Origin: an uncultured candidate division Zixibacteria bacterium
Lineage (GTDB): Bacteria; Zixibacteria; MSB-5A5; UBA10806
Direction of reading: 5' to 3'
Length of the DNA: 64,000 nt
Assembly: GCA_963817915.1 (NCBI GenBank)
Contig: CAWFQL010000003.1
Location: 57,414-121,413, forward strand
The position numbers and the translations under genes were made by a program. Under the pieces are notes generated by a model. The model was not told the DNA's origin, ran no database searches, and was given only the letters and a program-made list of their open reading frames with translations. Of this stretch, positions 1,262 to 29,098 are shown in pieces (position 1 is the first letter of the stretch; each line of letters opens with the position of its first letter).

Positions 1262-1350
1262 TGCGTGTCACAGTTTACTGTGACCGCAATCCATCTTGTC
1301 GCGGTCAAAGCTTATCCGCCGCTTGTCTGGCACGCAAGCATTGACTCGCG
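1262..1350. repeat. ~70-90-nt nested-hairpin element (family F), copy 1 of 3
   Basis: gcgtgtc-acag-TTTA-ctgt-gaccgcaa...gcggtcaaagc...gacacgcaa. Other copies at 28793-28860 and 28918-28990. The inner stem shows compensatory changes between copies (gtcacag/ctgtgac versus gtcgcag/ctgcgac). Confidence 0.6.
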
Positions 1351-1376
1351 ACTAAATTATTTTGGTTTTATAATTT

Positions 1377-2084
1377 TTAGTCTATCAATCTCGCAATGAA
1401 GAAAGCCGCGGCCGATGCCAATCCGCCGATAAGCATTGTCTGAAACGCACCTCGAAATGGGTTAAGCCCCGTGAATCTTCCCTTAATATAACCGAATACA
1501 AAGAGCGCCGTCAGTGTAACGCCGATAGAAACATATAGCGCGGTCGTCAAATTTCTGAGCACAATATATGATGCCAGCGGAACAAGACCTCCGATGATAT
1601 ATGACATCGCGATAGTAAATGCGCTGCGAGCGGCGCGTTTGGGATCCGGCGCTTCGAGGCCGAGCTCGAAACGCATCATGAAATCAACCCACCGTTTGGG
1701 CTCGGCGCAAATAGCTTCAACTACCGGAGCCATCTGTTCTTCATTCATGCCGTAGCCTCTGAAGACATCGGCGACTTCTTCGATTTCGCGATCGCGAAGT
1801 TTTTCGATTTCCAGGTATTCTCTGGCCTCCTCGGATTTATAATGCTCCATATCGGTCTTCGCGGCCAGATATCCGCCCAGCCCCATCGCTATCGATCCCG
1901 CCGCTATTTCAGCAAATCCCGCTGTTACAACAATCCCTGTCGGATTGGGACTGGCTGCCACCGCTCCGGTCAGGCCGGCCGCCAGAGCGAACGGCACAGT
2001 CAATCCATCGGACATCCCTATGACTATATCGCGAACAGTCGCGCTTGCCATAAAATGAGATTCAATATGTGGTGCCGCCGGCAT
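1377..2084 (-). CDS. VIT1/CCC1-family iron/manganese transporter
   Basis: 235 aa, with an N-terminal cytosolic ferritin-like region followed by TM helices (MSDGLTVPFALAAGLTGA, GLGGYLAAKTD). The architecture and motifs are those of the VIT family. Confidence 0.6.
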   Translation of the reverse strand: MPAAPHIESHFMASATVRDIVIGMSDGLTVPFALAAGLTGAVAASPNPTGIVVTAGFAEIAAGSIAMGLGGYLAAKTDMEHYKSEEAREYLEIEKLRDREIEEVADVFRGYGMNEEQMAPVVEAICAEPKRWVDFMMRFELGLEAPDPKRAARSAFTIAMSYIIGGLVPLASYIVLRNLTTALYVSIGVTLTALFVFGYIKGRFTGLNPFRGAFQTMLIGGLASAAAFFIARLID

Positions 2085-2104
2085 GATTCGCTCCTTTTAT
2101 TCTT

Positions 2105-2200
2105 TATACAACAGTAGGACAGGAGTCGCAGACTCCTGCCAAAACCACGTTTCTACAATGGCAGGAGTGTTCCACTCCTGCCCTACAAAATTGTGCCGCA
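2105..2200. repeat. REP-like hairpins (caggagt...actcctgcc family)
   Basis: gtaggacaggagtcgcagactcctgcc and ggcaggagtgttccactcctgccctac. A related copy is at 6662-6690. Confidence 0.55.
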
Positions 2201-2218
2201 TATACAGTATTTCTAATC

Positions 2219-3628
2219 TCATAATTTGGCCAACGCCTTCAATATCGCGTCCGTGATCGGATCGAAATGTTTCTTGACCAGATGGCCGCCGGGAAGCTGA
2301 ATACAATCGACCATGGTCGTATCGAGGTCCTTATCCCTGCAGATTACGTCGTCGTCATCCGCTCCATAGAAGCAAAGAATTTTTATCCCTTTGAGCCTTT
2401 TAAATTCGGGCTTGGTAGGAGTCGATTTATCGCTGGGTGAATTACCGAACCAATTGGACACGTGGAATTCAAAATCTGCTTCATGCGCGGGGCCGATGAG
2501 TGCTATCAATTTTATTTTATCTTTTAAATCTGCCGGAAGACGATTTACCATGAATGGCAATACGTCGGCCCCCATAGAATAACCGATTAATATTATTTTC
2601 TCCTTTTTCCAGGCTGTCGAATAATACGACAAAACCCTGCCCAGATCTAACGACGCCTCTTCAGGTGTCTTCTTATGCCAGAAATATTTCAGCGAATTCC
2701 ATCCGATAACAGAAATCCCGCTATCGGCCAGTGAATTCGAGATCCCCTTGTCGGTCACTCCCCAGCCGCCATCGCCTGTGATATGAACTGCCATGACGTT
2801 TTTAGTCGTATCATCCGCGATCACCTCTACCAATGGCAGGTCTTTCACCGCGACATCTTCCACCGGTGGCGGTGTAATCTGCTGAGTGAATGTTACCTTC
2901 TTGTAGGCTTCCTTAAATTGCGGCATCCAATTTCGCTCGACTGAAAAACCATGCCCGACCTTGGGCAATTGAATGATCTCGCCGTTTTTCACCTGCCCTA
3001 CAAATTTATCGGTTTCAGCGGGATCGCAGACTTGATCTATATCTCCCTGCAACGCTACCCATGGCACTTCCAGAGATTTCGCCGGCAAAAAACTGTACCC
3101 CTTCCCTTTGGGGCCGGCAGTCCATTCGAGACCAATACCGGGACAGAATTGCTTAGTCACCGGCAAGTCGGGGCAGAAACCCAGACTGATGGCGCCTTTG
3201 AATGTGTTAGTCGGAGCCTGGACAAGCGAGGCATATACTAAAGTCGCGCCCGATGAATACCCGACGAGGATCGGTGTCACATAATTTGGAAATTTGTAAT
3301 TCTCCTGCACGAATTTACTCAATATCTCGAAATCCCCGGCCGGATATGAGCATTTCTCCGATGATTTATCGAGCTCGCCGAGATAATGAGTGATATTAAC
3401 TCCAACGACCATGGCGTCGAGCGATGACAGCGAACGAGCCATATCGACTACTCCAAGATTCCAGCCGCCATCGCCTGATACAAAAAGTACTAAATTCGAC
3501 GGAGTGGGGTTATTGTAATAGGTATAAATATTGCCGAATCGTCCGAATTTCAATGTATCCTCGGTCGCGAGTGATAAATTGAATAAAATAATCGTAGTTA
3601 GTGAAATCAGCAGACATATCTTTTTCAT
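2219..3628 (-). CDS. AcvB/VirJ-family two-domain alpha/beta hydrolase, a putative aminoacyl-phosphatidylglycerol hydrolase. Secreted or periplasmic.
   Basis: Signal peptide MKKICLLISLTTIILFNLSLA; the probable start is the internal Met at 3628, while the ORF extends to 3670. Two tandem alpha/beta-hydrolase-like halves (HITGDGGWGVTDK...; LVGYSSGATL; ILIGYSMGADV), as in Agrobacterium AcvB and Pseudomonas PA0919. It sits next to MprF-like genes. Confidence 0.6.
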   Translation of the reverse strand: MKKICLLISLTTIILFNLSLATEDTLKFGRFGNIYTYYNNPTPSNLVLFVSGDGGWNLGVVDMARSLSSLDAMVVGVNITHYLGELDKSSEKCSYPAGDFEILSKFVQENYKFPNYVTPILVGYSSGATLVYASLVQAPTNTFKGAISLGFCPDLPVTKQFCPGIGLEWTAGPKGKGYSFLPAKSLEVPWVALQGDIDQVCDPAETDKFVGQVKNGEIIQLPKVGHGFSVERNWMPQFKEAYKKVTFTQQITPPPVEDVAVKDLPLVEVIADDTTKNVMAVHITGDGGWGVTDKGISNSLADSGISVIGWNSLKYFWHKKTPEEASLDLGRVLSYYSTAWKKEKIILIGYSMGADVLPFMVNRLPADLKDKIKLIALIGPAHEADFEFHVSNWFGNSPSDKSTPTKPEFKRLKGIKILCFYGADDDDVICRDKDLDTTMVDCIQLPGGHLVKKHFDPITDAILKALAKL

Positions 3629-3671
3629 TTTGGTCACGCCCCCGTATAAATTGAATTGCAAAAAATACAAA

Positions 3672-4727
3672 TCACACTTCTATTTTACGCTTCAAAAGCT
3701 TCGATATCTCCAATCGAATATCTTTTAATTTCATCCCCGTCTCCGATATCGCCCATAACCCCAATATCCAAAGCGGAATTGTCAGAATAATAAACACTAC
3801 TATCGAAAAGCCGGTTGCAGTTGTTTTATCGATTCCGAAAATAGTCAATCCCACAACGCAGAAAAATTGATAGGAACCGATATTCGATGGAGCGTTGGGG
3901 ATGGCAGTCCCGAGATGCACAATCATCATCACCGCAGCCCCGGCCCATAGCGAGACTTCAAGACCATAAGCCCTCATTACCAGCCAGAACGCCAGGATTT
4001 GGAATATCAATACAAATGCCGAGGCTATCAATGCGAAATAAAAATCACTTTTTAGCCCTATCTGCTTGATACCCGCGGCGATTTTTGAAATAAACCCAAT
4101 CGCTCTCTTTAATATTCCGGCCTTTCCAATGACTGCTGATTTGTTTTGTGCCAGCTCGCGTTGCTTTCTGAACACAAGGTAAATAAAAAGAATCACTGCC
4201 AAAATTACGACTATCCCCAAAATGTCGGCGGCCTTCAAGAGATTTTTCGGGAGCTCGACAAACAGCGCGGTCAATCCGATTCCAAATGCCAGCCAGATTC
4301 CGTCATGAAACCGCTCGATCACCATCGATGGCACAATCGAAAGTATGTCCTTTGACATCCAGCGCGAAACCAGATAGGCACGGACGAGCTCGCCTGCCCG
4401 CAATGGTATTATCTCATTAGTAAAAAGTCCGGCATAGATCGCCTGAGTTGTTTTGATTGTTGATATTTCCCCGAGTGGTTTCATTAAAATCCGCCATCGA
4501 AGTCCCTGGCTCAAATAGCTGAAAATATCAAAAAACACAGCCAGTATTATCAAGCTCCATTGGATATTCGGTATCTGAGAAAATAACCGTTCAACATGAA
4601 TATCATGAAAAACCCACACCAGACATGCGGCGGCGAAAAGATATCCTAATATCTGTTTTAGACGATAATTTTTGGATGATGAAGGCCTATCTCTATCAAT
4701 GGCGGAGGATGATTCGTCATTTTTCAT
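3672..4727 (-). CDS. Lysylphosphatidylglycerol-synthase TM-region (flippase-like, UPF0104) membrane protein
   Basis: 351 aa, polytopic membrane protein, with a basic N-terminus followed by ~8 TM helices. It has the MprF N-terminal flippase-domain architecture and is adjacent to a synthase-type MprF. Confidence 0.5.
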   Translation of the reverse strand: MKNDESSSAIDRDRPSSSKNYRLKQILGYLFAAACLVWVFHDIHVERLFSQIPNIQWSLIILAVFFDIFSYLSQGLRWRILMKPLGEISTIKTTQAIYAGLFTNEIIPLRAGELVRAYLVSRWMSKDILSIVPSMVIERFHDGIWLAFGIGLTALFVELPKNLLKAADILGIVVILAVILFIYLVFRKQRELAQNKSAVIGKAGILKRAIGFISKIAAGIKQIGLKSDFYFALIASAFVLIFQILAFWLVMRAYGLEVSLWAGAAVMMIVHLGTAIPNAPSNIGSYQFFCVVGLTIFGIDKTTATGFSIVVFIILTIPLWILGLWAISETGMKLKDIRLEISKLLKRKIEV

Positions 4728-4741
4728 TATATAAATTTCGT

Positions 4742-6436
4742 TTAATTCCGGTTCTTTTTTACGATTCGTAGTATCAACGGAACACCGATCGGTTTTTTGA
4801 CTTCGGATAATTCCCGAAGAGCAATCGCCAGTCTCGTCAAGTCGAGATAGCCTCTATAAATCGAATAACGCGGCTCCCAGGTATTAGCGAATTTAGCCTT
4901 ATAATTCAGAAGCCCCTTGTAGCTGAAAAGGAAGTTCAGATGCTGGAAGAAATAATGAATAGCCTTTTCCTCAGGAGATGCTTGCTCATTTTCCCTGAAA
5001 CCAGACATCGGAGCCATGCCGAGATTGAAACGTTCATACCCCTGTTCTTTCGAATGAAGAAAAAGCTTTATGAAAAGATAATCCATAATGCCGTTGGGTG
5101 ATGATTTCCTGCGTCGCATGAGATCATTCGTCACTTCTCCTTTGAGGTAAGAAGGTATCAGATTTACAAACCCCTGAATCTTACCGTCAATATCTTCCGC
5201 TGTCAAAACCGGTGTCGAGCGGATATATTCGGTTTCGAACATTCCCAATGTGAAGTGCCGCTCCCGACGACCTGAAATCTGAAGCCATTCATCGGAGACT
5301 TCTTTAACTCTGGCGATTATCTCGTCCGGCACAGGTGGCTGATAGAAATGAGAGTGTATCCCGGCTTCTTCCATTTTTCGAACCGTGTGACGAATTTCTT
5401 TCTTAGCTTTTTCCAATGTAAATTGCTTGAGGTCCACTATGCCGTCATCGCCGATTTTGATCTTCCTGAATCCGAGCTTTTCGAAGATCGGAAGATAATC
5501 CGGCAGGGTTTGATGAAAGCATGTTCCCCAATCATTCTCCTGACAATAAGTTGAAAAACCGCGAATAATCTCTTCGATCTCATCCTCCGGCCCCACGGGA
5601 TCGCCCAATGCTATGGCAAAATTATTGGCCACTCCATAAGCGACTACACTCTTCTGGGATTTTGAAAAATAATATGATTTATCCGGCCAGAATTTGAAAT
5701 AGTCCATCGATGATCGGCCATATTGTTCAACAATCGTTCTTGTTTGCGAAATTTCATTCGGCAGAGTCCTGAATCTATAAATGACGGGCCGAAACAACGC
5801 ATACAAAGAATAAATAATCGTAATAGAAGATAAGAAATAAAGCGAATCGAGAAACCATTTGGCGTAACGAGTCCGGGGAATTAGAGTAGAATCGCCGATC
5901 CATGTCAGATATAGAAATGTTTCCTTAATCGCCTCGCCGATATGGAAATTAATCTCAAAATGATTTTTATCCAAAAACCAGAATGCCGCAATGCCATATC
6001 CAAATGCCAGTAAGACCGCGATTCCAAACCTCGCCAGCCCCCAGCGAATATCCGGTATGCTGCTTTTGACAACAAAACTTTTTCTGGCGAGAATCAATAC
6101 CAGCAAAAGCACAAGCGAAACCGAAGCCTCTTCGTAGTCAAGACCTTTGGTGAGATGAAATATGATCGAAAAGATCGATAAAATCAATACTGTCAAAAAT
6201 GCGCGTTTCTTTCGACGGTAAATATTTATCGCCGAAACCACCAGCGCCATTCCAATTGCCATTGTCAGGAATTTCGAAAGATGTATGAATTCCAGCGCGA
6301 AAAACTCTTTCAATATTGCATGCCGTTCCGGCAGGCTGGGGCCGATTAATGAAATGAAGTTGATCAGCCCGCTTCCCAGAGTAAATAGGGCAACGAGCTT
6401 TACCAGGATCATGCTTGGCTTAAGTTCTATTTTCAT
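4742..6436 (-). CDS. mprF: MprF-like aminoacyl-phosphatidylglycerol synthase: TM region plus C-terminal DUF2156 synthase domain
   Basis: 564 aa. N-terminal ~6 TM helices, then a soluble C-terminal domain (…GDPVGPEDEIEEIIRGF…FETEYIRSTPVL…LNYKAKFANTWEPRYSIY) that matches the MprF synthase (LPG_synthase_C) domain. Confidence 0.65.
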   Translation of the reverse strand: MKIELKPSMILVKLVALFTLGSGLINFISLIGPSLPERHAILKEFFALEFIHLSKFLTMAIGMALVVSAINIYRRKKRAFLTVLILSIFSIIFHLTKGLDYEEASVSLVLLLVLILARKSFVVKSSIPDIRWGLARFGIAVLLAFGYGIAAFWFLDKNHFEINFHIGEAIKETFLYLTWIGDSTLIPRTRYAKWFLDSLYFLSSITIIYSLYALFRPVIYRFRTLPNEISQTRTIVEQYGRSSMDYFKFWPDKSYYFSKSQKSVVAYGVANNFAIALGDPVGPEDEIEEIIRGFSTYCQENDWGTCFHQTLPDYLPIFEKLGFRKIKIGDDGIVDLKQFTLEKAKKEIRHTVRKMEEAGIHSHFYQPPVPDEIIARVKEVSDEWLQISGRRERHFTLGMFETEYIRSTPVLTAEDIDGKIQGFVNLIPSYLKGEVTNDLMRRRKSSPNGIMDYLFIKLFLHSKEQGYERFNLGMAPMSGFRENEQASPEEKAIHYFFQHLNFLFSYKGLLNYKAKFANTWEPRYSIYRGYLDLTRLAIALRELSEVKKPIGVPLILRIVKKNRN

Positions 6437-6599
6437 ATTTCATCGCTTTTATACTAAATTCGCCCGCATATCTCAATAGTTGCCCGGGGTATCAACCCCA
6501 GCTTCTTATACGTTTCATAGCCTGAATAATTATATGACGCTTTTATATCCAGTCAAGTCGATTAAATAGAAGAAATCCATCAAACTCCTATTAAACACT

Positions 6600-6735
6600 C
6601 TGGGATATCAACTGCGCTTTCCGGTCGCCCGACCCGACATAAAACAATTAGCCCTGCATACCAAAAGTAGGCCAGGAGTTGGAACACTCCTGCTATCAAA
6701 GAGCTGTCGGGTCGCCTGACCCGACAGCTTAGTTC
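6600..6735. repeat. Palindromic repeats (gtcgggtcgcctgacccgac family plus a caggagt hairpin)
   Basis: cggtcgcccgacccgac (6615). gtaggccaggagttggaacactcctgc (6662). ctgtcgggtcgcctgacccgacag (6703-6727). The same 20-bp palindrome recurs at 15.9-16.3 kb, 18.04 kb and 18.23 kb. Confidence 0.7.
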
Positions 6736-6810
6736 GAAATCAAAAAACGCCCTTGGGAAATTCAAGTGCTATCGGGTTGCCTCATCCGACAGGAAATTTC
6801 CGAAAGCATA

Positions 6811-10929: not shown

Positions 10930-10940
10930 ATTCCCAATTC

Positions 10941-11690: not shown

Positions 11691-12260
11691 CTACTGATTA
11701 TTGTAAGCGACCATAAGGACTATTTCCGCGCCGTATGTGCCCGCGGTCTGATTGGTCGATGGCCATACTCTGCCGCCGAGATACACATGGGTACCCGCTG
11801 GACCGATGACGGAAGAAGCCGCCGGAATAGCATATGGATTTTGGTCAACAAATCCATCGCCAGCCACCATCGCTTCAGGTGTTGCCGGGGTGAGTGTATC
11901 GACTGCGGCGTCGGTAGCCGTAAATGAAATCGGCATACGGTCATGACCATTAGCGAGAACAATGTATTCCGGAAGAATAAATTGAAGATTGATACCTGCC
12001 TGCTGTCCGGCGATATCAAATATAGCCGCGGAATCAGCGCCAGCGCCCGATGACGGAATGCTTTTGGGGACACCCTGCCACAATGTTCCAAAGTCCAATG
12101 GAGCTGTTGCTGTAACCACTATCAATGGAACTACTGTTCCTGTTGCTGTTCCGGTGGCAACATCCTGAGCGAATGTTACACCGGATGAAATCGCCAGTAT
12201 TAATCCAACAAGGATTAATATCATCCCTGATTTCCGGAAACTTTCTTGTCTCAATTTCAT
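11691..12260 (-). CDS. SCPU-domain pilin paralog 3 of 5. Candidate major subunit because the terminator follows it.
   Basis: 189 aa with signal peptide (MILILVGLILAISSGVTFA). Motifs PLDFGTLWQGVPK, LPEYIVLANGHDR, GTYGAEIVLMVAYNN. Confidence 0.6.
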   Translation of the reverse strand: MKLRQESFRKSGMILILVGLILAISSGVTFAQDVATGTATGTVVPLIVVTATAPLDFGTLWQGVPKSIPSSGAGADSAAIFDIAGQQAGINLQFILPEYIVLANGHDRMPISFTATDAAVDTLTPATPEAMVAGDGFVDQNPYAIPAASSVIGPAGTHVYLGGRVWPSTNQTAGTYGAEIVLMVAYNNQ

Positions 12261-15869: not shown

Positions 15870-15924
15870 ATCATTTGGCCATGCCTCAGGATTGGAGGTT
15901 TTTTTAGACATCCTGAGGCTTTAT

Positions 15925-16400
15925 TAAAGGTGAGGTCGGGTCGCCTGACCCGACCGACATTGAGTCTCACCTAGTGATGTCGAGTCGCAGTACCTGACCA
16001 GAATCTTCTCCCCGATTTTTGTCGATTATTCTATTTTAATTGAATATTAAAAGTGAGGTCGGGTCGCCTGACCCGACCGACATTGAGTCTCACCTAGTGA
16101 TGTCGAGTCGCAGTACCTGACCAGAATCTTCTCCCCGATTTTTGTCGATTATTCTATTTTAATTGAATATTAAAAGTGAGGCCGGGTCGCCTGACCCGAC
16201 CGACATTGAGTCTCACTTAGTGTCGTTGAATCGCAGAACCCGACTAGAATCTTCCCCCCCGATTTATGTCGATTTTTCTATTTTAATTGAATATTAAAAG
16301 TGAGGTCGGGTCGCCTGACCCGACCGACATTGAGTCTCACCTAGTGATGTCGAGTCGCAGTACCTGACCAGAATCTTCTCCCCGATTTTTGTCGATTATT
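15925..16400. repeat. Tandem array: 4 copies of a ~122-bp non-coding unit
   Basis: The unit is (a/g)gtgaggtcgggtcgcctgacccgaccgacattgagtctcacctagtgatgtcgagtcgcagtacctgaccagaatcttctccccgatttttgtcgattattctattttaattgaatattaaa. Copies begin at ~15928, 16052, 16173 and 16297. Copy 3 diverges (ggccggg, cacttagtgtcgttgaatcgcagaacccgactag, ccccccc). Each unit carries the 20-bp gtcgggtc-gcct-gacccgac palindrome. Confidence 0.85.
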
Positions 16401-16496
16401 CTATTTTAATTGAATATCCCAAATTAATATGCTAATATTGCCGGTCTTATAGAAGGTGGTGGGAAGGGGATTAAATCTTAAAAATAGGGGCCAGGC

Positions 16497-18017: not shown

Positions 18018-18034
18018 ATTTTGATTTTGTGTGG

Positions 18035-18255
18035 TCGGGTCGCCTGACCCGACCACAGCTTTGTCATTATCGTAGGGATTTGATTCATCAAACCCCAGAG
18101 CCTGTCATTCCGCACTCGATGCGGAATCTTGCGCGCTCCTAATTGTAGGGCGGAACTCCTGAGTTCCGCCTATTTGTAATCGGCCCAAAAAAGTCCGAAC
18201 CTCGGGGGTTCGGACCTACTAGCTTTTGTGAGGTCAGGTCGCCTGCGACCTGACG
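18035..18255. repeat. BIME-like cluster of about 6 palindromic units
   Basis: gtggtcgggtcgcctgacccgaccac. gtagggatttgattcatcaaacccc. cattccgcactcgatgcggaat. gtagggcggaactcctgagttccgcc. gtccgaacctcgggggttcggacctac. gtgaggtcaggtcgcctgcgacctgacgacc. Confidence 0.7.
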
Positions 18256-18944: not shown

Positions 18945-19355
18945 GCACCTTATTCTGATGTAGTCGTAGGGCGGAACCCCCGTGGTTCCGCCATTCCGAG
19001 TGCGGTCGGGTCTCCGCACCCGACCGAAAACCCCGATATCACCGTAGGGGTTTGATTCATCAAACCCATCTTTGGAAAATCTCAAACATTTCGCAGGGGC
19101 GTTTGAAAAAACGCCCATTTGCTGGGCGGCAGGCGTCCCGCCTGCCCCTTGTATAGAAGGCAAAAAAAGAGTCCGAACCGCGGGGGTTCGGACCTACTGT
19201 AAAACCGTCATTCCGCATCCGTCGGTCGCCGGACTGCAAGGCAGCACCGATGTGGAATCCGCGCGCTCCTAATCGTAGGGCGGAACTCCTGAGTTCCGCC
19301 TATTTGTTTTAGGCAAAAAAAGAGTCCGAACCGCTGGGGTTCGGACCTACCGTAT
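18945..19355. repeat. Dense BIME-like cluster of about 9 GTAG-type palindromic units
   Basis: Units in order: gtagggcggaac-ccccgtgg-ttccgcc. gtcgggtctccgcacccgac. gtaggggtttgattcatcaaaccc. ggggcgtttgaaaaaacgccc. ggcggcaggcgtcccgcctgcccc. gtccgaaccgcgggggttcggacctac. cattccgcatccg...gatgtggaatc. gtagggcggaactcctgagttccgcc. gtccgaaccgctggggttcggacctac. Confidence 0.75.
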
Positions 19356-19381: not shown

Positions 19382-21637
19382 TCAACTGTCAAATCTCTGC
19401 TTAATGTATTCCTGTGTCTGCTTCGCTGTTAGTTCTGTAGTGGAGGGGCCGGTTCGAATGTAAAACCTTTCAATATCTCCGTCTTTTACAAACTCTGCCT
19501 TAGTCGCCCTACCGCATTTAATGATCATCACTCTGCTATCATCGTAATCTTCAAAGTGAACATGAATTTGGGTCATAGCCAGTGGCCCTATTCTGCTCTT
19601 GACTATATTAACTAAATGCAAGCTCATCTTATCTTCATCGGGGAATCCATCCGCTTTAATATCCGCCGAACCGCCATCATCGTGCACACCAATAATCAAA
19701 GTGCCCCCGTTTGTATTGAGGAATCCTGCGATTGTCTTTAGCATTGATAGTTCAATCCGCTGGTCAGGGCTCCCAGTATGCAGATTTGTTCTTAAGGTCG
19801 CCTTGAATTCGACAGCTTCGGATTCGCCGTTTTCTATTATTTGGCTCAAATCTAGTTCTTTTAATTTAGTGTCCAGGTTTATATCTGCGACTAGTGTTTC
19901 ATACCCTTCACGAATAATTTCAGCCATCAGTTCGCGTCTTTTGACCAGGAAATCATTATATTCTAAGTGTTCCCAGTTTTCGGGTAGCGCGTGCCAATGA
20001 TACATTTCAGATAGTTCATTGTGACCAAATCTAGAATTGAATTCGGCTAAATATTCGGCGGGTGGTTGTATAGAAATTTTTGCATTATCACCCCATTCTA
20101 CGTAGGAGTAATTTGCAATTTGATTGGTTTCTCGAATACCCTTAATATTGATTTCCTTTAGATATTCCTTCGGAAATAGATGATGTCTTTCGACTGCTGA
20201 ACGATTTCCTTGCATTGCCGGGTCAAACAAATCAGCTACTTTGATTTTTGAAAATAACGCTCGAGCGTCTAGAAGTACAAGTGCGGCTTCAAAAGCAAAC
20301 AATGAGGGGCTTCGTGAAGAGGATGTAGCCAAATCGTTTGGCAAAGTGACAATCCAGTAGTCAGATGTTAGAGTAATTTCGCAAATGCTTTCAAGTATCC
20401 GGATGAACTGATCGCCCTCTTTTATTTCCCTGAACCGCGCAAGATCAAACTCCATAGCTGATTCCGGAGAGCCAGTGAACCGGCCGGTGACGCTGGACAT
20501 AAAGAACCAGCGGGCAATAACTCGCCGAAGCTTGAATTCATTTATGCAGTATTCCGTGCGGCCGATCAAGTAAAGAATGTATGAGAATAATAAGTTGTTT
20601 TGGGAACTGATCATCTTACCGCTTCTGAAACCGGCCTGCCTGATACAATTCATGAAATCATGCCAATACTGCAAGTTCAGAACACGACTTTGGGCTTTCT
20701 TTAGAACGTCAAATTGCGCATTCCTTCGCTCTTCGCTAAATTGCTCAGTCTCAAGGTCCTTACCCCGAAGGATAGAATATACATATTGTAGGCGGGCTCG
20801 CTTAAACGCAACTCCGACACTAACTCGGAGGAGCTGATCAGGGCCTGGTTCTATAAAATAGTTGAACGGAGAAGCATCAACCTTTGAGGGTCGCTTGGAA
20901 GCCAGACAAAACTTCTCAAGTTCCTTGCGCCCATCGTCCCAAAATACAGACATTAGAGTCAGAATAAAGTCCGCCTGGTTCAGAGGCGTTCCTTTACTAT
21001 TGATGCGCACAAAGACATCTGAAACATTTTCTTCAGAGATGTTCGGAGCCAATTCAAGAGCGGTGAAAGGAAAGCTCAAAAGTCCATTAAGTTTGGTGAT
21101 AGTCCTCTGAATTCTCCTTTTCTCGTCATCTTCGATTTCTCTGGATTCACTCAATCCAGCTAGGTATTTTTCGACTACTTCAAAGAGATCCGTTTTTTTG
21201 TTCCATAATAAAGAGATATCAGGTATAAATGTTTTATCGCGACGTATCGCGGCGTCGGCAACCTCAAACTTTTCTTCAAGCGGATTGAAGGCTATATATA
21301 TTTGTTCCTTTTCATAATTCTCTCTTATTACAGGAATGCCTTTTACAACAGCATAAAGCGAAGTCAGCCGCTGCTGACCATCAACTATGACAAGGCGTGG
21401 CGATTTTTGTTTATTCTCAGCTCCAATAGTGCGCGAGTCTGCCGCCAAACCGTTTTGCCAAAACAAAAAATATCCCACTGGATACCCTCGATACATCGAA
21501 TCGAAAAGATCCCTAATTTTGGCGTTCTTCCAGACAAACGGTCGCTGAATATCAGGTAAACCAATTTCGCCGAGGGCTATATATTCCATTAGCTTGGATA
21601 AGTCGTAGTCGACCTTTGCGAATAGGGTATCACTCAT
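19382..21637 (-). CDS. GmrSD-like type IV restriction protein (DUF262 + DUF1524) fused to a C-terminal AlbA_2/Schlafen-like domain
   Basis: 751 aa. N-terminal DUF262/ParB-like motif LVIVDGQQRLTSL. Middle His-Me/HNH-like DUF1524 motif (ERHHLFPKEYLK). C-terminal ~150 aa has GESEAVEFKATL...KTIAGFLNTNGGTLIIGVHDDG, a close match to the AlbA_2 (Schlafen-type) signature. GC is visibly lower than in neighbouring genes. Confidence 0.7.
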   Translation of the reverse strand: MSDTLFAKVDYDLSKLMEYIALGEIGLPDIQRPFVWKNAKIRDLFDSMYRGYPVGYFLFWQNGLAADSRTIGAENKQKSPRLVIVDGQQRLTSLYAVVKGIPVIRENYEKEQIYIAFNPLEEKFEVADAAIRRDKTFIPDISLLWNKKTDLFEVVEKYLAGLSESREIEDDEKRRIQRTITKLNGLLSFPFTALELAPNISEENVSDVFVRINSKGTPLNQADFILTLMSVFWDDGRKELEKFCLASKRPSKVDASPFNYFIEPGPDQLLRVSVGVAFKRARLQYVYSILRGKDLETEQFSEERRNAQFDVLKKAQSRVLNLQYWHDFMNCIRQAGFRSGKMISSQNNLLFSYILYLIGRTEYCINEFKLRRVIARWFFMSSVTGRFTGSPESAMEFDLARFREIKEGDQFIRILESICEITLTSDYWIVTLPNDLATSSSRSPSLFAFEAALVLLDARALFSKIKVADLFDPAMQGNRSAVERHHLFPKEYLKEINIKGIRETNQIANYSYVEWGDNAKISIQPPAEYLAEFNSRFGHNELSEMYHWHALPENWEHLEYNDFLVKRRELMAEIIREGYETLVADINLDTKLKELDLSQIIENGESEAVEFKATLRTNLHTGSPDQRIELSMLKTIAGFLNTNGGTLIIGVHDDGGSADIKADGFPDEDKMSLHLVNIVKSRIGPLAMTQIHVHFEDYDDSRVMIIKCGRATKAEFVKDGDIERFYIRTGPSTTELTAKQTQEYIKQRFDS

Positions 21638-21884
21638 TTTGTTATCTCCCCAGTTTCCATTAGGCTTGGTTAATTATTTCCAAAGTGTTATCAACCTTAT
21701 TAAAGGATTAGGCCGCATCCTTCACTTAAGAAGGTCGCTTCCTATTTGTTACTCCATCCCTCTTTCCCATAATAATAGACCTCTTCCCCCAAATTGTCAA
21801 TATATTCCAAAAACTCAAACGGCCGGAATCGCTTCCGGCCGTCGGAGAATGAAATGTCGCTGTTGTTATGTTATTGATTCTTGT

Positions 21885-22075
21885 GTTGTCGGGCCGCCCA
21901 ACCCGACGCCACTAATATGTCATGTCTTTAATTTTTTCCTGCGAGTCACAGTCTATCCGCCAGTGGCGGAGCTTGCCGTGACTGCATCCAATTTTGGTTT
22001 GCGATCAGGGTAAACCCTGACGCGCAGCAATTCCATTTTTTCGTAGAGACGCAAAATCTTGCGTCTCTACATAGT
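21885..22075. repeat. Palindromic repeats flanking the right side of the defence gene
   Basis: gtcgggccgcccaacccgac (variant of the 20-bp palindrome). A gtcacag...cgtgactgc inverted repeat. A perfect GTAG hairpin gtagagacgcaaaatcttgcgtctctac at 22046-22073. Confidence 0.6.
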
Positions 22076-22081
22076 GAATTA

Positions 22082-22606: not shown

Positions 22607-23049
22607 TTGTCCTCCAAATTGCTATTTTGACATTGTTTACATATACCCATTAATTGTAATGATCCTTCTAAAATCGTATATCCCTCCATCGCCATGTCGG
22701 GCATCAATGATCTGACATCCCGTGGCAATCCGATATCATAAATCCTGTTGCAATTGACACAAATGAAATGCGCGTGCGGCTCGGTGTTGCCATCGTATCG
22801 GTATGTGTTTGAAACCGGATTCACCTTGCGCGCAAATCCAACCTTTTCTAAAAACTCGAGATTTTTATAGACAGTCGCCAACGACACTGTGGGATAATAT
22901 TCCTTCATGGTGTTATAAATATCCTCAGGCGACGGATGAGCCTTAGACCCCCGAAGCAATCCTAACACGGCTAACCTTTGCTCTGTCAACTGGATACCAT
23001 TCTCTTTGCAGTAGTGAATAAAATCGTCAATTCTTGAATCTTTTACCAT
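22603..23049 (-). CDS. Fur-family metalloregulator, PerR-like by context
   Basis: 148 aa. HAHFICVNCNRIYD and a C-terminal CKQC metal site. Its stop overlaps the peroxiredoxin start (ATGA), so it forms an operon with the peroxiredoxin. Confidence 0.75.
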   Translation of the reverse strand: MVKDSRIDDFIHYCKENGIQLTEQRLAVLGLLRGSKAHPSPEDIYNTMKEYYPTVSLATVYKNLEFLEKVGFARKVNPVSNTYRYDGNTEPHAHFICVNCNRIYDIGLPRDVRSLMPDMAMEGYTILEGSLQLMGICKQCQNSNLEDK

Positions 23050-23132
23050 CGTTCCTCCAATACATATTCCTGAACGATAATAATTATTGAATAGTTTCTG
23101 TTATTATAGAATTTTTTTGAAATTGATTAAAA

Positions 23133-23501
23133 TTATGCGATTGCTTTGGACTTGAAAAGCTGGATTAATTCCCTGATGTGATTCATAAGGCAATTAGCGC
23201 CGCAAGGTTCAAGGTTGGAGATATTAAGGCAATGGCCCTTGCAGCCTTCTTTTCCTCTATTCAATTCATGATAAATTGGACCATGGTACAGATCGATAAA
23301 ATTGATCACCTCTATGGCCATTGTCGTGCCGCAACCGGAGGAAATATGATTAAACAAAAAGAGGCCTTCTTCAGGAATATAAAAATCGGGTTGGAATCCT
23401 ATTATCGCGACCTCGGGCGAGATGATAAATTCTCGTCTATTCGTCCAGGATTGCCTGCAATAAGTACAAACTTTGAAAGGTGCCGCGACTAAAGCTTCCA
23501 T
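23133..23501 (-). CDS. Hypothetical Cys-rich protein (122 aa)
   Basis: ORF only. Motifs CTYC, SSGCG, CKGHC and CGANC. It is co-directional with perR-prx and 83 bp upstream of it. An overlapping plus-strand ORF (23178-23492) makes the strand assignment uncertain. Confidence 0.3.
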   Translation of the reverse strand: MEALVAAPFKVCTYCRQSWTNRREFIISPEVAIIGFQPDFYIPEEGLFLFNHISSGCGTTMAIEVINFIDLYHGPIYHELNRGKEGCKGHCLNISNLEPCGANCLMNHIRELIQLFKSKAIA

Positions 23502-23512
23502 CGATTACTTTC

Positions 23513-24373
23513 CTATATATTCAGGACGCTTTTCCAGGTGGATTTGGCCAATTTCTGAAATTCGGAATCATCCGGATCTTCTTCCCTGATAAACGGCGCG
23601 ATTGTCTTAAAGAAATGCGCTTTATCAAGCGAAAGCTCCGGTACCACTCGCTCGGAATTAATTAATGCCGCCTGCTCCAGATCATGCTCCATTCCAAGCT
23701 GAGAGAGATAATATCCATGCGATGATTCTTTAAGCATCAATAATATATCCCGATGATAGCTGTCGAAAAGATACTTGGCGGTCCGTGACGCGTCGTTGAC
23801 AGCCAATTCTGTTTTTGATCTTTTGAGGATTTCATTTATAAACATGCCGGCGCAAACCGAATCTTCAAGCGCGAATCTTCCCATCTTCCCGGAGCATATC
23901 AATACGATCCTCCCATGGAGTTCGATCGAATCGAGCACGGCACTGATATTGTTGAATGATCCAATCAGCGCGCGCGCGGCTTCCATTGATGCCAACAATG
24001 CCTTCGAGCAATTGGTTGACGAATATATCAACTCTTTTCCACGAACAATATCGGGCGCATATTCCGATGGTGAATTGCCGAGCTGAAATCCTTCGACACG
24101 TAAACCGTTTCGTTCGCCGCAGAGCAGATACTCATCTGGATGAAGCTTCGCGGCCTTCTGCTTTGCCGCCTCGATTTCGGCTACAGGCATAATTTTAAGG
24201 GCGCCGTTTTTGAGCGCCCTTATTAACGTTGTCGATCCTCTGAGGACATCGATTACAATCGCGGTCGTGTCCCGCAATTCGAGTCCCACAAGTTCCGCCG
24301 GAGTAAACGCGGTGATTATTTCTAAATCGCCCGAATGACTATTCATGCTTATATATATCGGACGCTTTGACAA
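23513..24373 (-). CDS. 2-phosphosulfolactate phosphatase (ComB) family protein
   Basis: 286 aa. TTAIVIDVLRGSTTLIRAL and the overall pattern match the ComB family. Confidence 0.55.
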   Translation of the reverse strand: MSKRPIYISMNSHSGDLEIITAFTPAELVGLELRDTTAIVIDVLRGSTTLIRALKNGALKIMPVAEIEAAKQKAAKLHPDEYLLCGERNGLRVEGFQLGNSPSEYAPDIVRGKELIYSSTNCSKALLASMEAARALIGSFNNISAVLDSIELHGRIVLICSGKMGRFALEDSVCAGMFINEILKRSKTELAVNDASRTAKYLFDSYHRDILLMLKESSHGYYLSQLGMEHDLEQAALINSERVVPELSLDKAHFFKTIAPFIREEDPDDSEFQKLAKSTWKSVLNI

Positions 24374-24388
24374 TCTTTTGATGTCAAA

Positions 24389-25483
24389 TCATCGATGGCT
24401 GCCCTTTTTGTAGAATGGCGCCTTGACTACCTCCGCGATCGCGACCTTACCCCTGATATCAATGCCGATTTCATTGCCTATTTTCGAATATTCCGATGGC
24501 ACGTATCCGGCGCCGATACCTTTGTCAAGCATGGGCGAGAATGTGCCCGATGTCACTTCGCCGACTTTTTTGTCGCCTATTACGATTGGATGATGCTGTC
24601 TTGGAAATCCCTTTTCCTTCAATTCGAATGCCACCAATTTTCGGCTTGTGCCCTGTTCTTTGGCCTTGAGCAATGGGGCACGTCCAACGAAATCACCCTT
24701 ATCGAATTTTACTACCCATCCCAGACCGGCTTCAATCGGGTTAGTGGTTTTGTCGATATCATTGCCGTAAAGGGCATATTTCATTTCGAGGCGTAGCGTA
24801 TCTCTGGCGCCCAAACCGATCGGTTCGACATCGAATTCCTTGGCGGCATCGGCGGTGGCATTCCACATTTTTTCAGCATGCTTGGGAGCGAAATAAAGCT
24901 CGAAGCCATCCTCGCCCGTGTAGCCGGTGCGTGAAAATAGCATCTCGACTCCGGCAATCCGCGCAGTGCCAGACCAATAGTACTTCATCGATGCCAAATC
25001 GTAATCGGTTAGTTTTGTCATTACTTTTTCGGCATCGGGGCCCTGAATGGCGAGCAGGGCATTCTCGTCGGAAAGATTCTCGAGTTTGATGTCATCGCTT
25101 TTCTTTAGCGATTGAAAATAGGCGAAGTCCTTGTCGATATTGGAAGCGTTAACAACCAAAAAGAAGATATCGCCGAGATTGTAAACCAAGAGATCATCGA
25201 CAATACCGCCATCGGGGTAGCACAGGCAAGTGTACATCACCTGGCCGACCTCGAGCTTATCGACATCATTGGTAACACAACGCTGGATAAATTGTTTGGC
25301 GCCATGCCCGGACACGGTGAATTCACCCATGTGCGAAAGATCGAAAAGCCCTACGGAATTGCGCACTTTCTTGTGCTCTTCGGTTATCGAACGATACTGA
25401 ATCGGCATGTAATAGCCGGCGAACTCGACAAGCTTGCCACCAAGCTTTTGATGGATATCATAAAACGCAGTCTTTTTAATCAT
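24389..25483 (-). CDS. gcvT: Glycine cleavage system T protein (aminomethyltransferase)
   Basis: 364 aa. N-terminus TAFYDIHQKLGGKLVEFAGYYMPIQY...GLFDLSHMGEF is canonical for GcvT. Confidence 0.85.
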   Translation of the reverse strand: MIKKTAFYDIHQKLGGKLVEFAGYYMPIQYRSITEEHKKVRNSVGLFDLSHMGEFTVSGHGAKQFIQRCVTNDVDKLEVGQVMYTCLCYPDGGIVDDLLVYNLGDIFFLVVNASNIDKDFAYFQSLKKSDDIKLENLSDENALLAIQGPDAEKVMTKLTDYDLASMKYYWSGTARIAGVEMLFSRTGYTGEDGFELYFAPKHAEKMWNATADAAKEFDVEPIGLGARDTLRLEMKYALYGNDIDKTTNPIEAGLGWVVKFDKGDFVGRAPLLKAKEQGTSRKLVAFELKEKGFPRQHHPIVIGDKKVGEVTSGTFSPMLDKGIGAGYVPSEYSKIGNEIGIDIRGKVAIAEVVKAPFYKKGSHR

Positions 25484-25891
25484 TAGATTTTTTCTCCTAT
25501 AAAAATCATACTTGCACGCGAATATACATTGTTTTTCATTAGAGTTCCAGAGTGAAATTGAAAATATGGAAATTCGATTGCGATTCGAGAATAATTGCTA
25601 TTTAGCATGATCCGTATTGGCTGCCTAAGCCAGATATGCTATTTTATATAGGAAGGGGGTTTGTGAGCAGAAAATTTCTTGATTTTGACATTTATCCTTC
25701 ACAAATCCTTAAATAAGATGGCCAAACGACATTTTTGGAAAAGCTAAAATTAACATATCGTTCGATTAATAATTACACTAAAGCAATACCTATATATAAT
25801 ACAAAACGGATTAAAAAGCCATTGACATCCATTAAGGCAATATTATATTTATATGCATGCTTAGATAATAGCATTTAGAATTTTATCCCGG

Positions 25892-27532
25892 TTGACCTTT
25901 GGCGCGGGAGGATTACTGACCAAATTAGCGTTTGCCATAACTATCAGCTTAATTATTAATTTCAATGTCTTTGCCCAAGTGGATACATCCTGGGTTCGGG
26001 CATATAATCAGTTTGAAGGCGGAACAGATTGTCCAGTTGCAATTGATGTCGATAATGCCGGAAACGTATATGTGACTGGGGCTAGCCGTGCGGCTACGGG
26101 AGGCGCCAATTTTAATACAATTAAATATAATTCTAATGGAGATACTTCCTGGTTACGGTCATATGGTGGTGGTGGAAATTATGATGATAGTCCCGTGGCA
26201 TTAAAAGTTGATGCTGTGGGTAATGTATATGTGGCTGGGTTTGTCGTATATTACCCTGGAGGGTATGATTATATAATAATCAAATATCTTTCTAATGGCG
26301 ATATCGACTGGATAAGACCATACGAAAATGGAAACATCTACGGTGTTGGTCAATCACTTGTTTTGGGGGGATCTGGAAACATATATTTAACTGGATATGC
26401 AACGGAACCCCATGACAATTGGGATTTGCTGTTAATCAAATATAGGCCTGATGGTGACACTGCTTGGATCAGATCATATAATGGTCCTGCTAATGGCTAT
26501 GAGGCTGGGCAATCAATGTGCGTTGATAATAATGAAAATATAATTATCACCGGCATTATCCAAGATTCACTGACGAGATTTGCCGATATCTTAACAGTTA
26601 AATTTGATTCTTCGGGAAATCAGCTATGGGCCGCAAGGTATAATGGTGCAACGGATTTCTACGATAGCGGCAGATATATTGCGGTCGATAGAGACGGTGC
26701 AGTGTATGTCGCCGCCATTAGCCCTCAGTACAATTCCAACGATGATATCCTCTTGATAAAATATAATGCCGATGGCGATACTGTCTGGACCCGCTTATAT
26801 GATGGGTCTGCACATATGGGTGATTTTGTCACTGGTCTGGGAATAGACTATGAGGGAAATATAATTATTTCCGGACTATTCATGGACGGGTCGCACGAAG
26901 CTTATGACGGAAAGATTATCACGCTGAAATATGATTCTGAAGGAAATATTATCTGGCAGCGCATTTACGGTGAGACTCGTTTGACTTATCCTATTCCTTC
27001 AAGTATGTGTCTTGACGCTGCCGGCAATATTTATATTACCGGCAAAACAGGTCAAGGGCTGCTTGCATTAAAATATTATTCTAATGGCGATTCCGCATGG
27101 TCATGGACTTACATCCCCCACTCATATGGCGGGGCCATTGTCGTCGACGCATTTTCGAATGTTTATTTAACCGGACGCACCTCCGAGTTAGAAGGACAAT
27201 CGCATTACTTAACAATCAAGCTTGTACAAACTGCTTTGGGAACAGATGATTATACAGTTATTTCCAATATCGATTACAATCTCAATTCCAATTACCCCAA
27301 CCCCTTTAATCCATCGACTACTATCAAGTATTCTCTCTCTCAACAATCAAATATTTGTTTATCAGTCTATAATCTGCTAGGCCAAAAGGTAGCAACTTTA
27401 TTTGATGGAAGCGCAGAGGCGGGGGAATACAGTTTAATCTGGAATGCCCGCGATATGCCGTCGGGCATATACTTTGCAAGACTGACAGCCGCTGGCAAAA
27501 CAAGCAACATTAAAATGGTACTAATGAAATAG
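25892..27532 (+). CDS. T9SS-secreted beta-propeller (SBBP-repeat) protein
   Basis: 546 aa with signal peptide. Repeated GN(V/I)Y(V/L)TG / DxxGNxxWxxxY modules (SBBP-type), then the Por C-terminal sorting domain NYPNPFNPSTTIKYSL...GIYFARLTAAGKTSNIKMVLMK. The gene and its upstream spacer are AT-rich. Confidence 0.75.
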   Translation: MTFGAGGLLTKLAFAITISLIINFNVFAQVDTSWVRAYNQFEGGTDCPVAIDVDNAGNVYVTGASRAATGGANFNTIKYNSNGDTSWLRSYGGGGNYDDSPVALKVDAVGNVYVAGFVVYYPGGYDYIIIKYLSNGDIDWIRPYENGNIYGVGQSLVLGGSGNIYLTGYATEPHDNWDLLLIKYRPDGDTAWIRSYNGPANGYEAGQSMCVDNNENIIITGIIQDSLTRFADILTVKFDSSGNQLWAARYNGATDFYDSGRYIAVDRDGAVYVAAISPQYNSNDDILLIKYNADGDTVWTRLYDGSAHMGDFVTGLGIDYEGNIIISGLFMDGSHEAYDGKIITLKYDSEGNIIWQRIYGETRLTYPIPSSMCLDAAGNIYITGKTGQGLLALKYYSNGDSAWSWTYIPHSYGGAIVVDAFSNVYLTGRTSELEGQSHYLTIKLVQTALGTDDYTVISNIDYNLNSNYPNPFNPSTTIKYSLSQQSNICLSVYNLLGQKVATLFDGSAEAGEYSLIWNARDMPSGIYFARLTAAGKTSNIKMVLMK

Positions 27533-27710
27533 CATTTGGCATAATTTGCGCTATTGTTTGCCCAACCCGAAAAATTGTACTTATCAATTAGAAAATCTTC
27601 GGCGTGTTTTTATATCTAGTCATGATTAGCCCAATATATTAGAGCGTTTCCACTCATTGTTTAATGCATAATAAAATTCCGCGGTTAATATCCCTTGACA
27701 TCTCATCATA

Positions 27711-28779
27711 TTGCAGGCATTTTCATCAATAAATTTGGGGGTATATTTAATGGCGAATCCGAAAAACATATCTAACCTGCTGGCGTTCAGAATGGCGTCG
27801 CATACGCTTCGCAATATGATAACCAAAAAGCCGATCTGCATAGCGTTGGAAGTAACCCACAACTGCACCGCCAACTGCCGCCATTGCGATAAGGGACCGA
27901 AAGTCGATGACCATGCGGTCGGGGCGTTAGAATATAAAAAGATTTGCGATGAGCTGTCGCCATCGATGATTCAAATCGCCGGTGGGGAGCCGTTGAAACG
28001 GGCCGAACTGCCCGAAATAGTCAGGGCATTATACAATCCCGATAAAATCCCGTTTCTGGTCGTAGTCACCAACGCGTCCTTATTGACCAAAGAAAAATAT
28101 CTCGAACTGCGCGAGGCTGGGATAAAGCAATTCTCGATCTCGCTCGATTTCCCCGATAGCCGCCACGATGATTTCCGCCGAATTCCCGGACTGTTTGACC
28201 ATTTGAATAAATTGATACCGGAATTAATCGCCATGGGCAATGGCGATGTTACAGTCAATACCTGCATCACGAGGGTTAATTATCCCTATCTCATGGATAT
28301 AATCAAGAAAGTGGCATCATGGGAGGCCAAGCTCAATTTCTCGGCCTATACCGATTTACGCACTCATGACGAGCAATACAATTTGAGGCATCCCGAAGAC
28401 ACGGTCACAATTCGACAAAATTATCGATCAGATATATTCCGATGAGACAGCGGCAAGTTGTGTGATGACATCGCAAAAGGTCATGCGTCGTTTCAATAGA
28501 TTCTATAAAGAGAAATGCTATATCCCCAATTGCCAGACCGGATACAAATTTCTGATTGTCAATCCCGATGGCACCCTGACGCCTTGCGCCATGTTCATCA
28601 AGGATCGTTATAAGAGCCAGAAGGAATTGATCGAAAAATTCGTCAAAAAGACCGATTGCGGGGGATGCTATATCTCGATCCGCGCCAATACCGAAAAATC
28701 ACTGTGGGAACTCTTAACCGATAATCTGCGTGCCTACAAACTCGGCCTGAAAAGCGCCGCGAAATATGGGACAAGGTGA
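27711..28779 (+). pseudogene. Radical SAM / SPASM-domain protein split by a frameshift into 27711-28445 and 28462-28779
   Basis: The first ORF carries the CxxxCxxC cluster (HNCTANCRHCDKG). The second ORF has a Cys-rich SPASM-like tail (CYIPNCQTGY...PCAMF...CGGCYIS). The second frame is open upstream back to ~28405 (…FDKIIDQIYSDETAASCV…), so a single +/-1 shift near 28400-28445 separates the halves. Combined length ~350 aa fits anSME/PqqE-like maturases. Confidence 0.6.
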
Positions 28780-28792
28780 TTTTGCTGTCTGC

Positions 28793-29098
28793 TGCGTGTC
28801 GCAGTTTACTGCGACCGCAAGCCATGCATCAGCGGTCAAAGCAAGCTTTGACACGCAACGAAAGTTTTCCGTAGTGGCTCAAAATTTTGAGCCCTCTTAT
28901 GCAGTAGTGGTTTGTTTTGCCGCGTGTCACAGTTTACTGTGACCGCAAACCATGAATCAAACGGTCAAAGCAAGCTTTGACACAAAAGGAAATCATTTTC
29001 TTCTTATCATTCCGCACCCACCACAGCGGGTCTAAATCGGCTTGATGCGGAATCTAGCCTTGAAATAACTCGCAAGATTCCTGCTTTCGCAGGAATGA
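28793..29098. repeat. Repeat cluster: two family-F structured elements plus GTAG, cattccgca and cctgctttcgcagg hairpins
   Basis: Family F copies at 28793-28860 and 28918-28990. gtagtggctcaaaattttgagccctc. tcattccgcaccc...gatgcggaatc. attcctgctttcgcaggaat. Confidence 0.7.

Follow-up and report, generated by a model that had tools for sequence, protein, structure and literature searches.

Family F, a probable REP family in inverted, REPIN-like doublets from a Zixibacteria-type genome

Many of the REPs (repetitive extragenic palindromes) described so far are defined in part by a 5' GTAG tag, which Escherichia coli TnpA_REP requires for binding and cleavage. Here we describe Family F, a short hairpin repeat in a 64-kb stretch of DNA from a Zixibacteria-type lineage (the window, within which all positions are numbered). 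We conclude, with a probability of about 0.85, that Family F belongs to the REPs, its units standing in inverted doublets that resemble REPINs (two inverted REPs with a short spacer), that it is non-autonomous, and that its single-stranded hairpin is acted on by a REP-associated tyrosine transposase (RAYT) of its own, whose gene lies elsewhere in the genome. A literature search returned no paper combining 'Zixibacteria' with RAYT or REPIN, and the present findings would document a REP/REPIN-RAYT pair in Zixibacteria-type genomes.

In the E. coli system of REPs, bacterial interspersed mosaic elements (BIMEs) and TnpA_REP (PDB 4ER8; PMC3479197), short imperfect hairpins with an obligatory stem irregularity are dispersed through extragenic DNA, often as inverted pairs and clusters, and a CT dinucleotide adjoins the unit. 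The RAYT gene lies between inverted REPs, an arrangement termed a REPtron, and the enzyme carries HUH and tyrosine motifs; its binding needs both the stem irregularity and the 5' bases, and cleavage occurs at CT (PMC3479197). Family F is alike in hairpin form, in extragenic and often paired or clustered placement, in the adjoining CT and in the bracketed transposase gene with its motifs. It differs in having no 5' GTAG, its 5' bases (C/T)T-GCG-N-GTC being mostly paired with the 3' arm, and in having a single bulged base where the E. coli stem has a 2x2 mismatch; its RAYT is only distantly related to TnpA_REP, and its host is of a Zixibacteria-type lineage and not a gammaproteobacterium.

The REPIN-RAYT systems of Pseudomonas and Enterobacteria (PMC3116915, PMC3337134, PMC5581495) comprise inverted REPs and a short spacer that are copied together, singlets beside doublets, and a single-copy RAYT in conserved synteny, and Family F corresponds to them in arrangement. 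REPINs number tens to hundreds per genome, whereas Family F is known from 8 units in 64 kb of this genome, and Family F doublets are heterodimers that join a TTTA-loop unit to a CTTG-loop unit with one stem pair different.

CGTC-tagged REPs (Di Nocera et al. 2013, PMC3733652) likewise have 4-nt loops, frequently form inverted dimers and occur in the Chlorobi/Bacteroidetes part of the tree; the 5' NGTC of Family F is mostly TGTC, listed there as a common CGTC variant. However, CGTC REPs have an unpaired tag, an 8-9-bp stem opening with two A-T pairs and a CCA tail (PMC3733652), whereas Family F has its GTC paired to GAC, a variable stem of 4 bp within an invariant base, and CGC as its tail. Past the GTC, the second position of the stem can be C, T, G or A. 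Together these differences place Family F outside the definition of CGTC REPs. CGTC REPs have also been reported without a dedicated transposase (PMC3733652), whereas Family F has one; should the TGTC likeness reflect homology, that orphan superfamily would thereby gain its first dedicated transposase.

The subterminal hairpins of IS200/IS605 insertion sequences (IS608, ISDra2) offer a further parallel, being bulged hairpins that a Y1 HUH enzyme reads as single-stranded DNA and whose inner stem sequence is free provided that pairing holds. These hairpins stand in direct orientation around the transposase gene and move with it as a multi-copy unit. By contrast, we found no direct Family F hairpins at both ends of a tnpA-bearing unit; the units flanking the transposase gene are inverted, the gene is apparently single-copy and syntenic, and the hairpins have spread without it.

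The 25-nt unit and its inverted doublets

A first-pass annotation of the window had described three copies of a nested-hairpin element. The 23-nt core GTGTCRCAGTTTACTGYGACCGC indeed matched exactly at 1265, 28796 and 28924 when the whole 64 kb was scanned, with 0 matches in 100 shuffles. The GCGTGTC/GACACGC and GACCGC/GCGGTC pairings that had been reported are present, as is the compensated change from GTCACAG/CTGTGAC (copies 1 and 3) to GTCGCAG/CTGCGAC (copy 2). Each element is more aptly viewed as a single 25-nt hairpin unit present twice, in opposite orientations: on the minus strand the right half reads GCGTGTCAAAGcttgCTTTGACCGC, the same unit as the left, with the right half composed of GCGTGTCAAAG-CTTG-CTTTGACCGC and the left of GCGTGTCACAG-TTTA-CTGTGACCGC. 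Because a self-complementary unit is present in inverted orientation, the 5' arms of the two units form an outer stem and the 3' arms a second hairpin, and no regulation is needed to explain either.

The unit consensus is GCG-N-GTC-NNNN-[TTTA/CTTG]-NNNN-GAC-CGC, a 25-nt imperfect palindrome that folds into a stem of 10 bp, interrupted by a single bulged base and closed by a 4-nt loop; its length lies within the 20-40 nt typical of REPs. The 5' context is (C/T)T-GCG-N-GTC; the base, GCG/CGC plus GTC/GAC, is constant, and the four inner pairs vary and stay paired. Under DNA folding parameters both strands form two separate unit hairpins. When the window was scanned with covariance model R1, trained on 23 distinct units, we recovered the six expected units and one more at 22001-22025, which belongs to a fourth, more diverged doublet at 21941-22025 that the first-pass annotation had not listed. 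The window thus holds four doublets, or 8 units, all intergenic and all converging and inverted with spacers of 13-15 nt, as follows.

Copy 1, 1263..1287, plus strand: left REP unit GCGTGTCACAGTTTACTGTGACCGC, loop TTTA; R1 42.8 bits, E 3.6e-11; folds as a hairpin
Copy 1, 1288..1300: spacer AATCCATCTTGTC, 13 nt, from the alignment
Copy 1, 1301..1349, minus strand: right REP unit, minus-strand GCGAGTCAATG-CTTG-...-CTTTGACCGC, from the alignment gap and fold
Copy 1, 1312-1335: 24-nt insertion in the right unit, directly after the CTTG loop, seen as a gap against copies 2 and 3
Copy 4, 21941..21985, plus strand: left unit GCGAGTCACAG-(20-nt insert)-CTTG-CCGTGACTGC, from sequence and fold
Copy 4, 21986..22000: spacer, 15 nt
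Copy 4, 22001..22025, minus strand: right unit GCGCGTCAGGGTTTACCCTGATCGC; R1 30.8 bits, E 3.2e-07
Copy 2, 28794..28818, plus strand: left unit GCGTGTCGCAGTTTACTGCGACCGC with the compensated G-C pair; R1 40.4 bits
Copy 2, 28819..28831: spacer AAGCCATGCATCA, 13 nt
Copy 2, 28832..28856, minus strand: right unit GCGTGTCAAAGCTTGCTTTGACCGC, loop CTTG; R1 41.9 bits
Copy 3, 28922..28946, plus strand: left unit with the same letters as the copy 1 left unit; R1 42.8 bits
Copy 3, 28947..28960: spacer AAACCATGAATCAA
Copy 3, 28961..28985, minus strand: right unit TTTGTGTCAAAGCTTGCTTTGACCGT, both ends degenerate; R1 25.9 bits over 28963-28983, against ~42

Copies 1-3 can be aligned over ~65 nt, with copy 1 carrying the extra 24 nt, and the GCGAGTC variant of its right unit recurs at loci L022 and L025 of related genomes. 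In the alignment these three copies share the spacer start AAnCCAT. The inverted-doublet form of every window copy and the spacer bases common to three of them suggest that the doublet was copied as a whole; we infer its replication as one unit from the shared spacer only. Similar doublets occur at L010, L017 and L019, and the spacer is not conserved across genomes.

We next consider how pairing is conserved. The anchor GCGNGTC-N12-GACYGC constrains only the outer bases, so that neither the four inner pairs nor the loop is specified, and by an arithmetic estimate from its specified bases about 0.01 matches are expected by chance, 1/256 of them with perfect inner pairing. The window and the related loci together yielded 58 matches with 13 inner-stem types, of which 56 had Watson-Crick pairs at all four inner positions and two at three of the four; pairing was also perfect in 26/27 matches from loci that had been fetched through protein, with no constraint on the DNA. 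Among the 23 distinct units, 99.6% of cells were paired, double changes occurred at all four inner pairs, and the covariation score was 0.380, compared to 0.126 for shuffled units (reached in 0/500 shuffles) and at most 0.137 for slid registers. The six outer pairs were constant, except that one of them once changes from G-C to G-T, and, being near-invariant, are uninformative on structure. Every one of the 58 units had the bulged base after GCG (T in 46, A in 7, C in 5); the loops were TTTA (26), CTTG (26), TTCA (3), CTCG (2) and CGGG (1), and the two bases 5' of the unit were CT in 33/58 and TT in 14/58. Collectively, these comparisons strongly support the view that selection acts on pairing and not on sequence, so that the selection on structure first proposed from three copies is now backed by many more.

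Insertions of 20-42 nt are frequent in the loop region of units, both in the window (1312-1335 and 21952-21971) and elsewhere (L001 193-258; L002 1139-1186). The two window inserts have TATCCGCC in common and each folds into a small hairpin of its own; some other small element may insert preferentially at the loop.

A transposase gene bracketed by units

Three of the ten open reading frames (ORFs) adjoining units are Y1-transposase-like. Family F units directly flank, on both sides, the ORF at 484-1158 of L015 in Zixibacteria bin38. With 108.5 bits this ORF clears the cut-off of 80 set for the NCBIfam equivalog NF047646 (REP-associated tyrosine transposase); the sole PDB entry that it matches is E. 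coli TnpA_REP, 4ER8, with E 3e-8 across 47 residues. Homologs with 52-65% identity numbered 17, several of them named RayT by JGI, and we fetched contigs for seven, which with L015 gave eight independent orthologous loci (L015, L020, L022 and L024-L028). The HUH motif is kept across the RAYT alignment together with a Y-x-H-x-N-P tyrosine motif, in agreement with the Y-x-x-x-N-P setting of the catalytic tyrosine in REPtron proteins.

At all eight loci a plus-strand unit lies 14-27 nt before the RAYT start codon, and at the other end the stop codon is either overlapped by a minus-strand unit or followed by one within 9 nt; units overlap the end of the RAYT ORF at L026 (1236-1260), L022 (4127-4151), L025 (761-785) and other RAYT loci. 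In those examined orthologs that end ...CGHNKL/M and have a 3' unit overlapping the stop (such as P0002, P0008 and P0009), this unit encodes the last six codons and the TGA stop. If Family F is the substrate of this enzyme, gene and 3' unit, sharing the last codons (C-G-H-N-K-L) and the stop in most of the orthologs examined, would be physically interlocked, a possible device for self-regulation. A RAYT flanked by inverted units is the defining REPtron arrangement (PMC3479197, PMC3733652), and it is found here at 8/8 related loci, all of them outside the window. A DNA hairpin recognised by a protein, which the first-pass annotation had offered as its second option, fits these results, the protein being a REP-associated tyrosine transposase.

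A urocanase-RAYT-YCII neighbourhood recurs, partly or wholly, at most of the RAYT loci, and this synteny fits the single-copy, vertical inheritance known for RAYTs (PMC5581495). The RAYT-like genes of L017 and L008 are bracketed by hairpins of their own that differ from Family F, one of them a classical GTAG-tagged REP, and distinct RAYTs therefore pair with distinct hairpin families in these lineages. At L017 the RAYT-plus-hairpin block stands between two ~85-nt direct repeats of a gene end (434-520 and 1238-1320); either tandem paralogues flank the block or a duplication accompanied its insertion.

The window itself contains an IS200 copy, whose tnpA (86-514) lies 750 bp from copy 1, and IS200/IS605 ends are likewise bulged subterminal hairpins. 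Family F could on these grounds be taken for the ends of this IS200, or for a miniature derivative of it (a miniature inverted-repeat transposable element, MITE, or a palindrome-associated transposable element, PATE), moved by the IS200 TnpA. We regard this origin as extremely unlikely. The IS200 copy has its own hairpins, CCACGGCTTTAGCCGTGG at ~37-54 and CCCCGGCTTTAGCCGGGG at ~548-566, which are in direct orientation and unrelated to Family F; its TnpA scores 111.6 bits as an IS200 equivalog versus 25 bits as a RAYT; and Family F units bracket a protein clade other than IS200 TnpA. On the strength of the differing hairpins and the equivalog score we rejected the window IS200 as the partner enzyme. 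We also rejected units as IS ends on the evidence of L012, where two direct units 2.1 kb apart enclose a single long, 580-aa housekeeping-type gene on the opposite strand and no IS. A likeness to a known IS end or MITE, which the first-pass annotation had named as the outcome that would count against it, nonetheless holds in spirit, since REPs and REPINs are non-autonomous and served by an IS200-related transposase.

Several observations weigh against Family F as a REP family with a dedicated RAYT. A tblastn search found no RAYT within the 64-kb window, and the only Y1 gene there is the classical IS200 TnpA with its unrelated hairpins. The classical 5' GTAG (GTRG) tetranucleotide is absent from the foot of the units. 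Copy number also appears modest, with only 2 matches to the ACA-type pattern on the complete Zixibacteria bin38 chromosome and only the two flanking units in 20 kb around one RAYT.

By analogy with E. coli TnpA_REP (PMC3479197), the Family F RAYT, an HUH/Y1 enzyme related to IS200 TnpA, would bind the folded unit on single-stranded DNA, reading the bulge and the invariant 5' bases and tolerating any inner stem that pairs. It would then cleave and rejoin close by, so that units and doublets are copied or excised, with the conserved CT immediately 5' of the unit as the candidate cleavage site. The window doublets would be passive intergenic copies, and any effect on mop/TOBE, VIT1, radical SAM, C92 peptidase or AhpC would be secondary. 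Since Family F has no GTAG tag, it provides a second, differently shaped hairpin-enzyme pair with which to ask what RAYTs read, the candidate cues being the bulge and paired 5' bases instead of an unpaired tetranucleotide. CT-GCG-N-GTC with a single bulge, which is neither GTAG nor CGTC, might even represent a third REP tag class with its own RAYT clade, a suggestion that we consider doubtful.

Genomic settings and the alternatives to a REP family

The exact window-core pattern had 0 matches in the species-representative genome collection, and the viral contigs scanned likewise gave 0 matches. It does occur on two short metagenome contigs, where 4-5 units crowd single intergenic regions and some units carry 23-42-nt insertions right behind the CTTG loop. 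With the loop and its closing pair left free, the pattern recovered 17 loci, most of them in three Zixibacteria metagenome-assembled genomes (MAGs) that include the complete bin38 chromosome; the others lie in an Ignavibacteria-labelled MAG, an unclassified MAG, KSB3 bacterium UASB14 and a Verrucomicrobiia MAG, the last match falling inside an ORF and probably being due to chance. The unit is nearly base-for-base alike across Zixibacteria, the Ignavibacteria-labelled MAG and KSB3 UASB14, all of them from uncultured lineages.

About 60 units in 28 loci were nearly all intergenic by a crude ORF caller, and Family F is in this sense repeated in extragenic DNA, as REPs are. The units occur in tandem, convergent and divergent settings, and in clusters of up to 5. 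Singlets are common and, at the related loci and with the same crude ORF calls, stand about 6 sense to 5 antisense relative to transcription; their presence on either strand therefore favours an entity at the DNA level over one at the RNA level. The window copies themselves lie in the following settings.

Copy 1: between VIT1 (1377-2084, minus strand) and a mop/TOBE gene (1028-1237, minus strand), 25 nt from the mop/TOBE start
Copies 2 and 3: between a split radical-SAM gene and a C92 peptidase gene, whose ends converge
Copy 4: between a GmrSD-like gene and an AhpC gene

The first-pass annotation had compared the two overlapping hairpins to a riboswitch or attenuator, and a cis-regulatory RNA, in which two mutually exclusive hairpins control a downstream gene, deserves consideration at copy 1, which lies just upstream of the mop/TOBE start and within a likely VIT1-mop transcript. 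RNA folds of the elements are far more stable than those of shuffles (z -3 to -7), and under RNA parameters an alternative long hairpin is possible on the minus strand, where copies 2 and 3 prefer it. However, copies 2 and 3, flanked by convergent gene ends, have no downstream gene on either strand, copy 4 and the units of related loci occupy every kind of context, and the common singlets, found on either strand, would be unable to switch. The alternative pairings are themselves the automatic outcome of inverting a palindromic unit, there is no conserved single-stranded region resembling a ligand pocket, and the spacer is unconserved between genomes. No Rfam family matched at gathering score anywhere in the window; permissive scans over the elements returned only matches that fell far short of the gathering score, to three miRNA-precursor families of plants or animals and two unrelated sRNA families of bacteria. 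Having found neither a known RNA family nor a fixed position and orientation upstream of a gene class, we judge regulation of this kind very improbable and the riboswitch or attenuator interpretation unsupported; a false lead to a new riboswitch or attenuator is thereby removed.

Each unit is also a near-perfect palindrome, and the unit centres of a doublet lie ~38-41 bp apart, as might be expected of operators ~40 bp apart on double-stranded DNA that bind a dimeric transcription factor, the doublet forming a dimer-of-dimers site. A symmetric dimer would moreover preserve symmetric changes in its half-sites. Nevertheless, four of the seven inner positions vary in 13 combinations while pairing is kept, which base-specific recognition of half-sites would not lead one to expect, and the conserved asymmetry of the unit, a bulged base in the 5' arm only, is meaningless in duplex DNA. 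Clusters of 4-8 units within one intergenic region, the 20-42-nt loop insertions, the units placed where convergent genes have their 3' ends, and the transposase gene that is specifically bracketed at 8/8 loci also speak against an operator, and we hold such a function to be highly unlikely. By eye, none of attC, dif/Xer, sigma-54 or NifA-type sites or the CRP/Rex consensus fits the conserved bases.

A further possibility departs from a REP family with an active partner in present function and not in origin, namely that the window copies are immobile REP relics kept because the host uses their hairpins as mRNA 3' stabilisers, partial terminators or protein-binding sites. The differences among the copies (substitutions, insertions and a degenerate unit) show them not to be recent; copies 2-4 each follow closely on a gene; and host roles of REPs have been reported (PMC3733652, PMC3479197). 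Against such retention, singlets show no strand bias relative to transcription, and the copies have no T-run terminator signature except a weak one in copy 3, on which ground we rejected a terminator role. We find the relic explanation improbable.

Other repeats and genes in the window

The window can be placed taxonomically only tentatively, by synteny at the 40-50% amino-acid level with one Zixibacteria locus. Other hairpin families occupy the same intergenic regions as all four Family F copies. Three hairpin families of the window begin with GTAG and are classical GTAG-tagged REP-like units, exemplified by GTAGGGCGGAACC...GGTTCCGCC and CCGTAGGGGCTCAAAATTTTGAGCCCC, and one unit of this type sits between Family F copies 2 and 3. 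They are listed below with two further hairpin repeats.

914-941, 18145-18172, 18966-18993 and 19275-19302: GTAG-starting hairpin family D13
987-1020, 22033-22066 and 28861-28894: GTAG-starting hairpin family D15
11826-11855, 18066-18095 and 19038-19067: GTAG-starting hairpin family D17
6611-6790, 15887-16417, 18026-18053, 18997-19024 and 21880-21907: hairpin GTCGGGTCGCCTGACCCGAC, thirteen copies
945-988, 18180-18223, 19158-19201 and 19311-19354: hairpin AGTCCGAACC...GGTTCGGACT, with a T-run after it on the minus strand

Hairpin GTCGGGTCGCCTGACCCGAC forms a tandem array with a 123-nt period at 15887-16417 and resembles the GTAG-GTCGGGGGC...GCCCCCGAC hairpins that bracket the RAYT-like gene of L008 (4593-5039). 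The AGTCCGAACC...GGTTCGGACT repeat looks like an intrinsic-terminator module. Recognising the Family F units and these other hairpin families avoids their mis-annotation as regulatory RNA, and both also account for assembly breaks in MAGs of this kind.

Four gene-level observations complete the picture. The IS200 copy, within 1-700, lies directly upstream of a remnant ORF (to 912) whose product is no more than a C-terminal sorting domain for type IX secretion, and because of this position the IS200 was probably inserted into that gene. The radical SAM gene beside copies 2 and 3 is apparently contained in two adjoining ORFs (27711-28445 and 28462-28779), a possible sign of a frameshift, pseudogene or sequencing error. 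A 751-aa ORF (19382-21637), adjoining the repeat-rich intergenic region of copy 4, combines a GmrSD N-terminal domain with a Schlafen/AlbA_2 domain and is a candidate defence gene. Finally, ~36600-40450 holds a tandem array of ~15 repeats, each 216 nt (72 codons) long and carrying TGYCAT motifs that would specify CxxCH sites for haem binding; this region, whose ORFs are split into several pieces in the mechanical ORF list, looks like a very large multihaem cytochrome.

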